Shown: positions 61,520 through 64,000 of the stretch, in pieces | Layout of the letters: each line of letters opens with the position of its first letter | Numbering within the stretch: the stretch's first letter is position 1 | Source of the DNA: a virus | Virus record (IMG/VR): IMGVR_UViG_3300009388_000001 | Span: 1 to 64,000 of that record | Length of the DNA stretch: 64,000 nucleotides | Direction: 5' to 3' (one strand) | Program-made: the position numbers and the translations under genes | The notes under the pieces: model-generated | Seen by the model: only the letters and a program-made list of their open reading frames with translations | What the model was told of the DNA's origin: nothing | Databases searched by the model: none

Positions 61520-62482
61520 ATGAATGAAATTACCGAAAACACAAAATCTCTAAAAATTGATCAGATCGACTGGCAGCGGCGCGAGAAGTTGGCTTTATCC
61601 AGGCTAACCGATAAGCAGAAATTATTCTGTGAGGAATATGTCCGGTCTTTCGATAAGATCAAGGCTATGAAAGCGGGCGGTTATGCCTTGCCTAAGCATA
61701 CAACCGGCGGAGCGCAACGGAAATTAATCGAACAGAATTTTGAGAAGATTATGTCGAGTGAAGCCGTACAGGAATACATTCTGCTGTTAAAACAGGATGT
61801 GGCTTCGCGGCTCGGTGTTTCCGTCGATGATATAATCGATGAATATAAATTAATGGCTTTCGCGAACATAGAAGATTATGTCGAGTGGGATAAAAACGGT
61901 TTTACTAAATTTAAAGATTCAAAGAAACTCACCAGGGCGCAAAAAGCCGGAATTCTTGAGATTACCGAAACGACCACGGTAAAGGGTACTACAATTAAGA
62001 TAAAACTGCATCCCAAGCAGCCGGCGCTGGACCGCCTGTTTGAAATCCTGAAAGAGCTTGAAGAATTTGAATCAAGTCATAAGGGTCAGGCCAATATTTC
62101 ACAGACACAAATTAATGTCATGTTGGGAGATCCACTGATGCGCAGGGCTATTGAGCTTATTGCCACAAAGATGTTTCCCGAACAGATCAAATTAGTCGGA
62201 GTGGATAAAAACCAGATTGAATTCAACAAGCATCTCGACAAGATTATGCATAAATTGGAGGCTACCAGTGGAAGAAAAGGCACGCGAAGCTTTGGAGAGG
62301 CGCAACTCCCGGCGCCGGAAAGCACAGGAGGAAAAGAAAAAGACGGAGGAAATCCTGCAGAAGTCATCAACAACATCGGAGGAAAAAAAGAAGTGTCTCA
62401 AGACGAAAGCTGCGGGGCTGCCGCCGCCGATACTGAACCCGCAGATCGATACGATTTCAATGGGATACGACCGGTTTCTTAG
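61520..62482 (+). CDS. terS: terminase small subunit
   Basis: N-terminal LSRLTDKQKLFCEEYVRSFDKIKAMKAGGY is typical of Terminase_2-type small subunits. It lies directly upstream of terL and overlaps it. Confidence 0.7.
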   Translation: MNEITENTKSLKIDQIDWQRREKLALSRLTDKQKLFCEEYVRSFDKIKAMKAGGYALPKHTTGGAQRKLIEQNFEKIMSSEAVQEYILLLKQDVASRLGVSVDDIIDEYKLMAFANIEDYVEWDKNGFTKFKDSKKLTRAQKAGILEITETTTVKGTTIKIKLHPKQPALDRLFEILKELEEFESSHKGQANISQTQINVMLGDPLMRRAIELIATKMFPEQIKLVGVDKNQIEFNKHLDKIMHKLEATSGRKGTRSFGEAQLPAPESTGGKEKDGGNPAEVINNIGGKKEVSQDESCGAAAADTEPADRYDFNGIRPVS

Positions 62483-64000
62483 CCAACTGCCCTCTGATAC
62501 ATGGAAATATCTGCCTCATACCTTTGCTGCAAAAATGAGTGAAGGTAAATGGATTGCTTTTAATTATCTGGTAATACTCAGCCATATAATCGCCTCGGTT
62601 ATTGTGCGCGGGGGAGGGCGCATTCTTGTTTCTATCCCGCCGCGGCACGGTAAAAGCTGGTTTATATCGCAGTGGATCCCCGTGTGGTTTTTATCAATGT
62701 GGCCAGGATTGAAAGTAATTCTGACAACTTACGAAGCGAACTTCGCGGCAACATGGGGAAGGCGCGTCCGGAATATTATCAAAGAATCGGGGCATGAGGT
62801 AAAACTGCAGCTATCCGACGATTCCACAGCTTCGAATAACTGGGAATTGACGACCGGCGGCGGCATGATTACCGCTGGCGTCGGAGGACCGATAACAGGG
62901 AAGGGCGGTCATTTGCTGCTTTGCGATGATCCGCATAAAAACTGGCAGGAAGCGCAATCGGATACTATCAGGGAGTCAATTAAGGACTGGTATGATTCCA
63001 CTTTCTACACACGTGCCGAACCTGGCGCGACGATAGTTATATTGCACTGTATGACTGGCGACACTCCGGTATTAATGGCGGATGGCACAGAAAAAAACCT
63101 AAAAGATATCAGGGTTGGAGATTTGGTAGCGACATATAAAAAAGGTCGTCTCGGAATATCAAAAGTTGAAAATTGGATAAATAATGGTCTTAGTAAAGTC
63201 TTAACAATTAAGACGACTTCTGGTATTGTTGTTAAAGCAAACGAGAGACACCCATTTCTTGTCAATAAAGAAGGAGTTATAAAATGGAAACGAGTGAAAG
63301 ACTTACGCCCGGGCCACGAAATTTACCGGGTCAATGGGGAAAATGGAAAGGTAAGACATGCAAGTCAGAAGGATGTGATAAACCGGCGTTTTGCCGAGGA
63401 TACTGCAATCACCACTATAATGCAAAACGATGGGCTGATGGAATCCGTCCGCCATCTTGCAATACGATGTCGAGATTTATTGGTAAACTTAAATATCGCT
63501 ATGGCATCTCATTGGAACAATATAATCAAATGTATAAAGCGCAAAATGGATGCTGCCCTATCTGTGGTCGACATGCAAGTCAGGCGAATAACCCATCCAG
63601 TTGGCGCGAAGTCTTGTGCGTCGATCACTGCCACGATACGGGAAAAGTACGAGGCTTGCTCTGCAACGACTGCAACCTGCTCCTTAAACGATACGCAACA
63701 ACAAATATCTTCGAAAAAGCGATTAATTACATCAGACTTCATTCTGGAAAAAATTGAATCAATTACCTATTCGGGAATTGAGGATGTGTTTGATGTCCAA
63801 ATTGCGGAAACCGAAAATTTTATTGCTAATGGTTTGGTGAGTCATAATACCCGCTGGCACGAAGACGACCTGATCGGGTATTTGATGCGTGAGAAAATAG
63901 AGGATGGGTATTTTCATATCAGGATGCCGGCGATTGCCGAAGATGATGACGATATTCTCGGCCGTAAACCCGGCGAGGCGCTTTGTCCGGAGCGTTATGA
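62460..64000 (+). CDS. terL: terminase large subunit, 5' part, interrupted by an intein (runs off the window)
   Basis: I checked the frame codon by codon and it is open from the ATG at 62460 to nt 64000. Walker A VSIPPRHGKSW, Walker B HLLLCDDPH, and the motif IVILH|intein|TRWHEDDLIGY. It is absent from the ORF track because it has no stop in the window. Confidence 0.8.
   Translation, partial: MGYDRFLSQLPSDTWKYLPHTFAAKMSEGKWIAFNYLVILSHIIASVIVRGGGRILVSIPPRHGKSWFISQWIPVWFLSMWPGLKVILTTYEANFAATWGRRVRNIIKESGHEVKLQLSDDSTASNNWELTTGGGMITAGVGGPITGKGGHLLLCDDPHKNWQEAQSDTIRESIKDWYDSTFYTRAEPGATIVILHCMTGDTPVLMADGTEKNLKDIRVGDLVATYKKGRLGISKVENWINNGLSKVLTIKTTSGIVVKANERHPFLVNKEGVIKWKRVKDLRPGHEIYRVNGENGKVRHASQKDVINRRFAEDTAITTIMQNDGLMESVRHLAIRCRDLLVNLNIAMASHWNNIIKCIKRKMDAALSVVDMQVRRITHPVGAKSCASITATIREKYEACSATTATCSLNDTQQQISSKKRLITSDFILEKIESITYSGIEDVFDVQIAETENFIANGLVSHNTRWHEDDLIGYLMREKIEDGYFHIRMPAIAEDDDDILGRKPGEALCPERY
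63048..63848 (+). mobile_element. intein (Hint domain) inserted in terL
   Basis: It begins CMTGDTPVLMADG, has a block-B-like KANERHPFLV, and ends NFIANGLVSHN followed by +1 Thr. It is 801 nt (267 codons) in the terL frame. Confidence 0.75.
63284..63757 (+). CDS. endonuclease VII / HNH-type homing endonuclease, nested in the intein in a different reading frame
   Basis: AAGGAG lies 8 nt upstream of the ATG at 63284. Motifs: Zn finger CKSEGCDKPAFCRGYCNHHY, then CCPICGR...LCVDHCHDTGKVRGLLCNDCN. The ORF start 63284 falls at codon position 3 of the terL frame, which begins at 62460. Confidence 0.75.
   Translation: METSERLTPGPRNLPGQWGKWKGKTCKSEGCDKPAFCRGYCNHHYNAKRWADGIRPPSCNTMSRFIGKLKYRYGISLEQYNQMYKAQNGCCPICGRHASQANNPSSWREVLCVDHCHDTGKVRGLLCNDCNLLLKRYATTNIFEKAINYIRLHSGKN

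Follow-up and report, generated by a model that had tools for sequence, protein, structure and literature searches.

TerL inteins with an out-of-frame EndoVII-like homing endonuclease have been reported for actinobacteriophages (Gosselin et al. 2025 preprint, bioRxiv 10.1101/2025.01.02.630785). The survey in that preprint covered PhagesDB only and makes no mention of metagenomes, start codons or ribosome-binding sites. In its inteins (Angelicage, Affeca, Keitabear and Sedona), a contiguous intein holds an EndoVII-like open reading frame (ORF) in frame 3. The same arrangement is found in our window, i.e. the whole 64,000-nucleotide stretch of viral DNA that was analysed, with the same host gene (TerL), the same insertion site and homologous sequence. 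The initial annotation had offered a previously undescribed organisation as one reading; this has to be given up, since the architecture is present in the 2025 preprint and its inteins are homologous to that of the window. Hence, the window represents a non-actinobacterial example and not a new kind of element. It falls outside the actinobacteriophage hosts of the survey, which is a matter of scope and not of structure: its GC content is ~40%, and 24 kb of the window had no megablast match among phage genomes, with no DNA-level kinship to INPHARED records.

For the gp6 TerL6-f intein from the Mycobacterium phage Chandler, Kelley et al. (2016, mBio, PMC5050341) found efficient splicing with a reporter in E. 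coli. The window shares with it the ATPase C-motif site (TerL6-f, as defined in that paper), a homologous Hint domain and the nested EndoVII ORF, which is 152 aa long in Chandler. In term searches, neither this paper nor Pope 2011 (PMC3029335) was found to mention a nested gene, and the former returned no endonuclease test for TerL6-f.

Other known systems are similar in part. In the fractured genes (Dassa et al. 2009, NAR, PMC2677866), as in the window, the endonuclease is a polypeptide of its own, apart from the splicing domain, and its gene is placed between the coding parts of Hint-N and Hint-C. The nuclease is VSR-like in the fractured genes whereas it is of the EndoVII type in the window, where moreover the host gene is unbroken: its frame passes through the endonuclease gene without meeting a stop and thereby connects the two Hint halves, so that splicing would take place in cis. 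The ShiLan-type HNH insertions in phage DNA methylases (Arsenault et al. 2025, Genes, PMC11855218) are likewise in-frame and stop-free and hide an out-of-frame HNH-superfamily endonuclease. However, the ShiLan insertion has no splicing domain and forms a loop that stays part of the host protein, and its authors found no ribosome-binding site and proposed leaderless initiation, whereas the window has a full Hint domain along with a conserved Shine-Dalgarno (SD) sequence and ATG. Canonical bifunctional inteins (LAGLIDADG or in-frame HNH) share with the window the location of the endonuclease DNA between blocks B and F and the presumed homing life cycle, whereas the intein polypeptide of the window does not include the endonuclease among its domains and the in-frame translation has no fold. 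T4 endonuclease VII (gp49; 1E7D, 1EN7, 2QNF) has the same ββα-Me core, four Cys zinc ligands and D/H/H/N residues as the nested protein, which differs in an extra ~65-aa N-terminal Cys/His module and in its biological context.

The terL gene and its intein

The genes and their segments described here lie on the plus strand. The small terminase subunit gene (61520-62482; an ORF with a Pfam Terminase_2 match, E=5.5e-18) overlaps with its 3' end the start of terL by 23 nt. From the ATG at 62460, terL reads in one frame over 513 stop-free codons (62460-63998) and stays open to the window end; the translation thus bears out the earlier statement that the host gene is one continuous ORF reading without a stop through 63048-63848. 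It is translated as a single precursor. The N-extein (62460-63047) is the ATPase domain with the Walker A (PPRHGKS) and Walker B (LLLCDD) motifs and ends with …ATIVILH, and the C-extein (63849-64000), which is cut at the window end before the terL stop, starts with TRWHEDDL, the ATPase C-motif. Joining of the two exteins gave a single contiguous Terminase_6N match (residues 58-239, E=1.3e-7), in agreement with the proposed insertion in a conserved TerL ATPase motif. Removal of the intein restores the host motif, and intein-less homologues, among them the closest TerL proteins (~60% identity), read contiguous …ILH-TRW….

The intein itself (63048-63848) is a class-1 intein of 267 aa in the terL frame, which runs from Cys1 to His-Asn and is followed by Thr+1. 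It reads CMTGDTPVLMADG…KANERHPFLV…WKRVKDLRPGHEIY…ENFIANGLVSHN, then TRWHEDDL. The Hint/intein ends recognised by the initial annotation were confirmed by the translation and by Pfam Intein_splicing (E=1.4e-18). The Hint-N half (63048-63338, intein residues 1-97) has blocks A and B and the WKRVKDLRPGHEIY segment, with pLDDT of 93-97. Its N-terminal nucleophile Cys at 63048-63050 (…VILH/CMTGDT, the slash marking the junction) is conserved across all relatives. Block B, KANERHPFLV, carries the His, with Asn replacing the Thr of the TxxH-type motif; the whole family has this ANxRHPF variant, and the homologue from Chandler, where it reads ANDRHPF, splices. The Hint-C half (63738-63848, intein residues 231-267; pLDDT 91-96) holds blocks F and G, ends with …VFDVQIAETENFIANGLVSHN as His-Asn before the +1 Thr, and is conserved across all relatives. 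The AlphaFold model of the intein resembles the mini-inteins Ssp and Npu DnaB, Mtu RecA and gp41-1 (target TM 0.8-0.9, E down to 1e-9), which predicts a HINT fold; residues 1-97 and 231-267 together are modelled as a complete HINT splicing domain.

Between these halves lies a terL-frame linker (63339-63737, intein residues 98-230) with pLDDT of 34-67 and no domain match, as expected from the earlier remark that the middle of this frame is without a recognisable domain. A degenerate LAGLIDADG remnant was sought in the linker and gave no Pfam match. The ~130-residue linker is a shadow translation of the EndoVII gene, a by-product which is kept only stop-free. The nuclease motifs are in frame +3 and not in the intein frame as in canonical bifunctional inteins, and the element differs from split inteins in that its terL frame is open without interruption from 62460 up to the end of the window. 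The intein is best read as a probably splicing-competent mini-intein with a junk linker.

The nested endonuclease VII gene and its start site

The nested gene (63284-63757) encodes 157 aa and, as claimed initially, lies in a different frame, +3 relative to the intein ((63284-63048) mod 3 = 2). It matches Pfam Endonuclease_7 (PF02945) with E=2.1e-18 and 66.4 bits (cut-off 23.6 bits) over profile positions 3-81 of 82, and this upholds the endonuclease VII/HNH-type motifs noted earlier. The match covers residues 68-151, the catalytic core (63485-63736), with zinc ligands C91, C94, C127 and C130 and catalytic D114, H115, H117 and N131. The four Cys and the D/H/H/N residues are invariant in alignments A1 and A2 and align with CxxC…DHxH…CNxCN of T4 endonuclease VII. 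A profile match to the T4 enzyme (1E7D) had E=4e-8 and extended over T4 residues 9-71 only. The model of the nested protein (pLDDT 86.6) has 2QNF, 1EN7 and 1E7L as top PDB fold matches (probability 1.0, E ~4e-3), with 32-33% identity to T4 endonuclease VII over 85 columns and TM ~0.3, the significance being local only. Upstream of the core, a Cys/His-rich module (63338-63418; G19…C26, C31, C41, H43/H44) is present, of which G19, C26, C31, G39 and C41 are invariant across alignment A1, and a more divergent subgroup has a second N-terminal Cys/His module. This is presumably a zinc-binding, DNA-recognition module. The motifs and profile matches identify the nested ORF as a predicted ββα-Me endonuclease VII-type nuclease with an extra N-terminal Cys/His module. 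An exact-sequence look-up of the nested protein found no record.

The nested ORF overlaps the confidently modelled Hint sequence at both ends, by ~55 nt in Hint-N (~50 nt of genuine Hint sequence had been estimated) and by ~20 nt in Hint-C, where its TGA stop sits. The AAGGAG sequence noticed before the nested ATG is indeed present (63271-63276) and forms part of the Hint codons GAA-GGA-G (Glu-Gly-Val), but its spacing to the ATG is 7 nt and not 8. The ATG (63284-63286) overlaps TGG (63285-63287), the codon of a conserved Hint Trp. An ATG or GTG is found on this Trp codon in 58 of 59 distinct relatives, and an SD-like 4-mer at -16 to -5 in 43 of the 59 (73%), compared with 124 of 854 control Trp codons (14.5%); a recognisable SD 4-mer is absent in about a quarter of the relatives. 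The Gly codon upstream of the nested start is GGA in 38/55 relatives (69%) against a background of 13%, and the four-fold-degenerate third bases before TGG are purines at 13/13. These counts indicate that the nested gene's own initiation site is written into Hint codons. Separately, a σ70-like site was seen at 63201-63229 within the intein DNA; as such sites occur at chance frequency, no internal promoter is claimed.

Conservation, selection and rival explanations

The comparison with homologous terL inteins suggested by the initial annotation has shown the same nested arrangement, with the same frame, intein and TerL site (…ILH/CMTGDT…VSHN/TRWH), in 73 of 75 distinct full-length nested-ORF relatives. 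These come from IMG/VR contigs, from genomes or metagenome-assembled genomes (MAGs) assigned to many bacterial phyla, and from Gordonia and Mycobacterium phages. The arrangement was counted in ~58 loci of IMG/VR and in 16 of genomes or MAGs, and the GC content of the loci ranges from 35 to 68%. The genomes and MAGs are assigned to Firmicutes, Proteobacteria, Chloroflexota, Verrucomicrobiota and Saccharimonadales, and the nearest relative of the window is in a bin labelled Clostridiaceae. The frame offset, insertion site and intein are common to phages Phlyer, Chandler, Vivi2 and Angelicage. In the phage collection, the best matches of the nested protein are the Angelicage and Charming TerL (44-48% identity, full length), and DNA and protein matches were obtained to the Angelicage, Keitabear, Affeca, Sedona and Vivi2 TerL, with junctions identical in type. 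Between Phlyer and the window, identity is 51% over Hint-N and 43% over EndoVII; the inteins of Phlyer and Chandler are 99.9% identical at the nucleotide level. The family spans phages and prophages in genomes and MAGs with assignments to many bacterial phyla and is not an actinophage curiosity.

The initial annotation held that the stop-free overlap is unlikely by chance. On the window alone it is moderately unlikely: in synonymous-codon resampling of the nested ORF the terL frame was stop-free in only 0.3-4% of the trials, and the third frame has 13 stops. Family-wide the case is overwhelming, as the terL frame is stop-free in 73/73 nested-type relatives but in only 1/40 free-standing relatives, whose equivalent frame has 4.4 stops per 100 codons. 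A chance open frame was therefore rejected on the resampling and the comparison with free-standing relatives. In comparisons with relatives, substitutions in the Hint parts fall at the third terL codon position and those in the overlap at the third position of EndoVII codons, and within the linker they peak at terL codon position 2. This wobble periodicity, together with the conserved start codon and SD, supports the claim that the endonuclease is a real gene selected in the other frame, and the nested EndoVII gene is under purifying selection. The further claim of selection on both frames stands for EndoVII, where it is of the ordinary purifying kind; the linker in the terL frame experiences only stop-avoidance, since identity to relatives over the overlap DNA is 21-56% in the linker frame versus 38-81% in the EndoVII frame.

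An assembly artefact, in which two compensating indels displaced a normal in-frame endonuclease domain, would find some support in the in-frame Hint-EndoVII or EndoVII-Hint fusions of four contigs with long-read-style names (L035, L098, L127 and L128). However, terL is broken into at least three frames in these contigs, and hence they are erroneous or decayed; they were also rejected as evolutionary intermediates, their several terL frameshifts being indel errors or marks of decayed copies. The intermediate between bifunctional and split inteins that the initial annotation suggested is speculative: a search for clean in-frame or split relatives yielded only these frameshift-ridden candidates, and among the 120 listed of 217 homologues PF02945 and an intein domain occur in one protein only in P0228, from the frameshifted contig L128. 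Moreover, 73 distinct sequences have the +3 offset; they were obtained in independent projects, and finished genomes of isolated phages are among them. The nested ORF also brings a conserved start, SD and stop of its own. Sequencing error is excluded by the recurrence of the arrangement in over 70 independent assemblies and isolate phage genomes, and the probability left to an artefact is negligible. The nuclease may instead be made by programmed -1 ribosomal frameshifting, as a TerL-N/Hint-N/EndoVII fusion with no internal initiation. The EndoVII frame is exactly -1 (= +3) relative to terL, a formal X_XXY_YYZ heptamer (C_CCG_GGC) occurs at 63308, and L004 has A_AAA_AAA just upstream of the start, with the near-match T_AAA_AAA in L006 and L007. 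But a formal heptamer lies in the usable interval of only 26 of 61 distinct inteins, at a position never conserved family-wide, and 24 relatives have an EndoVII-frame stop at most 5 codons upstream of the start. With the start codon conserved in 58/59 relatives, the SD enriched, and no match to an Rfam frameshift element or other RNA family, frameshifting was rejected as highly improbable.

Two other explanations concern the role of the nested ORF. It may be what is left of a free-standing nuclease gene that once inserted into a mini-intein and is now dead or decaying, unexpressed, with the intein being inherited only vertically; the preprint terms the phylogenetic distribution of EndoVII-type inteins 'ambiguous' and some relatives are without an SD. 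Against this, the ORF is open with catalytic and zinc residues invariant down to 38% identity, the EndoVII frame has wobble-position periodicity, ATG/GTG and GGA-G are kept at synonymous Hint positions, and the distribution is patchy, with some pairs having a near-identical intein and divergent flanks. A relic is thus quite improbable. T4 gp49 clears branched DNA for packaging, and the nested EndoVII may similarly resolve Holliday junctions or branches for the benefit of the phage, co-expressed with the terminase. The closest solved relative is the junction-resolving T4 endonuclease VII, the position within the packaging ATPase gene would give late co-expression, and free-standing EndoVII genes of phages are commonly annotated as resolvases. 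However, the gene is confined to one intein at one site, its presence co-varies with the intein and the closest TerLs are without both, whereas nothing would be expected to bind a beneficial enzyme to a selfish splicing element. Further, the T4 similarity spans only the short segment given above, and extra N-terminal Cys/His modules are typical of modular homing nucleases. Such a resolvase role is considered unlikely.

Proposed mobility and significance

The locus is, in our judgement, likely a composite mobile element in the terL ATPase C-motif, consisting of a mini-intein, a linker and a separately translated homing endonuclease. The intein would splice out, restoring …ILH-TRWH… and an active terminase, and ribosomes would initiate independently at 63284 on the terL mRNA to give a free nuclease. 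In a co-infected cell or an infected lysogen, this may then cut an intein-less terL within or close to the conserved TRWH codons, and repair would copy the intein and the nested gene into the cut allele, which is homing. A point against this is that T4 endonuclease VII is structure-specific and not sequence-specific. As a spliceable precursor is needed by the host, a terL-frame stop within the overlap would be lethal, and the terL frame would in this way be kept open through the codon choice of the nuclease. As regards transfer, the inteins of L053 and L054 have 99.2% nt identity with C-flanks at 70%, and those of the window and L084 have 83% identity with flanks at 67-71%. The higher conservation of the intein than of the flanks could partly come from constraint rather than transfer, the L053/L054 pair being exempt.

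These observations add to the 2025 preprint the hosts across many bacterial phyla, the conserved internal initiation signals and one member already shown to splice, and with these the idea that the homing nuclease is translated independently can be tested directly. For annotation, it matters that gene callers miss the nuclease or truncate TerL. The locus is also a clean natural overlap of two proteins, one fully under purifying selection and the other only stop-free, and reflects the tolerance of an intein for ~130 arbitrary linker residues. It is also relevant to the origin of the association between inteins and homing endonucleases.

More tentatively, it is possible that the element belongs to an old dual-coding family which has spread among very different tailed phages as a stable stage, with its start hard-wired into Hint codons. 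Such a start would tie nuclease synthesis to the late terL mRNA, and loss or relocation of the nuclease would damage the intein. If true, the SD would be carried by a Gly-Glu/Val codon pair and the ATG by a Trp codon, and the family would represent a stable 'caught in the act' stage of mini-inteins acquiring endonucleases and not a short-lived accident. It would then provide a tractable system to test the 'splicing first' model of intein origin.

The terL intein and the nuclease gene nested in it

The frame of terL, the large terminase subunit gene, was found to run on the + strand from the ATG at 62460 to the window end, giving 513 codons without a stop on translation, and its intein lies at 63048-63848 (+), residues 197-463 of the frame (Pfam intein splicing domain, E=1.4e-18). 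The intein starts with CMTGDTPVLMADG, contains KANERHPFLV and WKRVKDLRPGHEIY and ends with ENFIANGLVSHN, followed by TRWHEDDL; the stop-free frame, intein ends and motifs of the initial annotation were thus all correct. The small-terminase gene upstream (terS, 61520-62482; Pfam Terminase_2, E=5.5e-18) overlaps the terL start by 23 nt. As the frame of terL is already open from 62196, the start at 62460 is judged by similarity to homologues only. Terminase_6N matched residues 58-185 of the unspliced protein (E=2e-4) and, with the exteins (the flanking TerL parts) joined, became contiguous over 58-239 (E=1.3e-7). The intein structure model, built from an 18-sequence alignment, showed pLDDT of 91-97 for residues 1-97 and 231-267 and of 34-67 for residues 99-229, and resembled the mini-inteins Ssp DnaB, Npu DnaB, Mtu RecA and gp41-1 (target TM 0.8-0.9).

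The 157-aa out-of-frame ORF with endonuclease VII (EndoVII) motifs noticed earlier is present at 63284-63757 (+), in frame +3 relative to the intein, as it begins 236 nt beyond the start of the latter, and scores 66.4 bits with Pfam Endonuclease_7 against a cut-off of 23.6 bits. Best PDB matches of the nested protein model (mean pLDDT 86.6) were T4 endonuclease VII entries, followed by Hpy99I and Cap5 HNH domains. Its zinc ligands and catalytic residues align with those of T4 endonuclease VII, and C91, C94, D114, H115, H117, C127, C130 and N131 are invariant among relatives.

Relatives and earlier descriptions

The phage, of about 40% GC, encodes tape-measure protein, helicases, primase-polymerase, methyltransferase, ParB, TerS and TerL; no tRNA genes were found in the window, and megablast against 50,697 phage records gave no match. 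Sensitive blastn of the region gave matches limited to DNA encoding …VDHCHDTGKVRGLLCNDCN…, in genes for the large terminase of Gordonia and Mycobacterium phages and for hypothetical proteins of four Stenotrophomonas phages. The intein of Phlyer TerL is already annotated, and the comparison with homologous terL inteins proposed in the initial annotation, when run, showed that Phlyer, Vivi2 and Chandler each carry a 152-153-aa EndoVII ORF in frame +3 within a contiguous TerL intein. The suggestion of a previously undescribed organisation does not hold, as it is already contained in the PhagesDB survey of Gosselin, Arsenault and Gogarten (bioRxiv 10.1101/2025.01.02.630785); phages of that preprint are among our direct matches, which places the window element in their family. 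Metagenomes, start codons and ribosome-binding sites go unmentioned in the preprint. Kelley et al. 2016 (PMC5050341) defined TerL6-f as an insertion site within the C-motif of the ATPase and found that the Chandler gp6 TerL6-f intein spliced efficiently in E. coli; as the Chandler intein includes the nested ORF, this result lends indirect experimental support to the splicing competence of a contiguous intein with such an ORF. Split inteins with a free-standing homing endonuclease gene between the halves (Dassa 2009, PMC2677866) are one related concept; a second is the 'hidden' out-of-frame HNH in the ShiLan methylase, for which no RBS was found and which is without a splicing domain (PMC11855218).

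Scanning IMG/VR with the nested protein gave 114 relatives and scanning GTDB genomes with the nested-protein alignment gave 42, with locus GC of 0.35 to 0.68. The genome or MAG labels of the GTDB matches, for which phage-contig binning is unreliable, were Clostridiaceae, Oribacterium, Dysosmobacter, Bradyrhizobium, Sulfuritalea, Oleiphilaceae, Anaerolineae, Opitutaceae, Saccharimonadales, Microbacteriaceae, Geobacteraceae and Caulobacteraceae. All members have one insertion site in common, …[IV][ILVM]x|C[ML]TGDT…ENFIANGLVSHN|TRWHxDDL. A divergent subgroup (L051-L063, L094-L100) has inteins of ~300 aa and nested proteins of ~190-200 aa with an extra N-terminal Cys-rich CxxxGC…CxxC module, which may be a second DNA-binding module altering target specificity. 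In locus L004:2-2833 (IMGVR_UViG_3300029288_006457; protein P0121) TerL has two inteins, seen as two Pfam Intein_splicing stretches, and the one besides the C-motif intein ends …NNFFANGILCHN|CDLGIIDDPHK, just upstream of Walker B. Automatic gene calls at L129:2027-3838 and L130:2003-4366 give an EndoVII ORF and a TerL cut to its C-terminal fragment; the terL frame is open throughout in both despite these calls. Among the matches listed, most protein-database EndoVII homologues of ~155 aa are on contigs <3 kb, and at least some of these may be nested copies.

Open frame, selection and translation start

When synonymous codons of the nested ORF were resampled and the terL frame scored for stops, no stop arose in 1% of trials under the codon usage of the window, in 0.3% under uniform usage and in 4% after own-codon shuffling; the third frame across the ORF has 13 stops. 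These odds by themselves are suggestive, short of overwhelming. It is the comparison across relatives that settles that the open frame exceeds chance, as earlier proposed: the terL-type frame is open across the entire nested gene in 73 of 75 distinct full-length-type ORFs versus 1 of 40 shorter, free-standing relatives, which average 4.4 stops per 100 codons. The two exceptions are L076, a free-standing-type relative of low identity (37%), and L035. In L035, L098, L127 and L128 terL is split into several frames on each contig; these are probably long-read indel errors in indel-ridden assemblies, or decayed copies in decaying prophages. Indels at L035:1900-3400, L098:2000-4210, L127:2970-5300 and L128:600-1310 fuse Hint-N with EndoVII or EndoVII with Hint-C (Hint-N and Hint-C being the halves of the splicing domain) in one frame, and they show that a single indel would make the nested gene an in-frame domain.

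Selection on both frames had been suggested, and the EndoVII part of this claim is borne out. Between the window and 13 relatives, substitutions cluster at the third terL codon position in Hint-N and Hint-C and at the second, the EndoVII wobble position, in the overlap (L004, positions 1/2/3: Hint-N 13/10/39, overlap 17/61/34). Overlap DNA is 38-81% identical read as EndoVII versus 21-56% as intein linker. This periodicity, the higher EndoVII-frame identity and the invariant residues argue that the nuclease gene is functional; the terL frame across it is kept free of stops, and nothing more.

AAGGAG, a Shine-Dalgarno (SD) sequence, is present at 63271-63276 (+), with a spacing of 7 nt to the nested ATG and not the 8 nt first reported. 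Of 59 distinct inteins, 58 have the start codon (ATG 47, GTG 11) placed exactly on a Trp codon conserved in Hint (xxA/G-TGG), and the divergent subgroup starts at this position too. An SD-like 4-mer was found 5-16 nt before it in 43/59 inteins, compared with 124/854 for the remaining in-frame Trp codons in these genes. GGA serves as the SD-supplying Gly codon in 38/55 and makes up 13% of Gly codons in the same ORFs, and four-fold-degenerate third bases before TGG are purines in 13/13. As to frameshifting, no slippery heptamer is conserved across the family (any heptamer in 26/61 inteins); the Rfam family search also gave no match. With the conserved start and SD enrichment, this makes independent internal initiation the best-supported route by which the nuclease would be made. 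A formal X_XXY_YYZ heptamer, C_CCG_GGC, does occur in the terL frame at 63308-63314 (+), 24 nt past the nested ATG, at a site encoding Pro-Gly in both frames; it recurs (CCCGGGC or CCCGGGT) at the same position in 11 relatives of one sub-clade and is absent as a family-wide feature. A σ70-like promoter match (TTAACA-17-TATTGT with upstream TG) lies at 63201-63229 (+), 55 nt before the nested ATG, and shuffled sequence predicts just as many such matches for the region.

Mobility and significance

The closest TerL proteins (~60% identity) are without an intein and read uninterrupted …ILH-TRW…. In most comparisons Hint (~50-65%) and EndoVII (~40-58%) identities are above that of the N-extein (~25-40%). 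The nearest relative of the element (L084, on a contig binned as Clostridiaceae) has 81% identity in EndoVII, 92% in Hint-N and 74% in the N-extein, and in its DNA the intein is 83% identical versus 67-71% for the flanks. Between the IMG/VR loci L053 and L054, nucleotide identity is 99.2% in the intein, 94.8% in the 400-nt N-flank and 70.0% in the C-flank, which looks like a recent transfer or a recombination boundary at the intein. Such contrasts fit homing or recombination at the intein.

Hence, the original observation is real, and its reading as an uninterrupted, splicing-competent intein whose putative out-of-frame homing nuclease of EndoVII type would be translated separately is well supported by sequence comparison. 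The organisation is not new in kind, the kind having been described very recently. Our study adds a range well beyond actinobacteriophages, initiation signals placed within Hint codons and the frame-specific patterns of selection.
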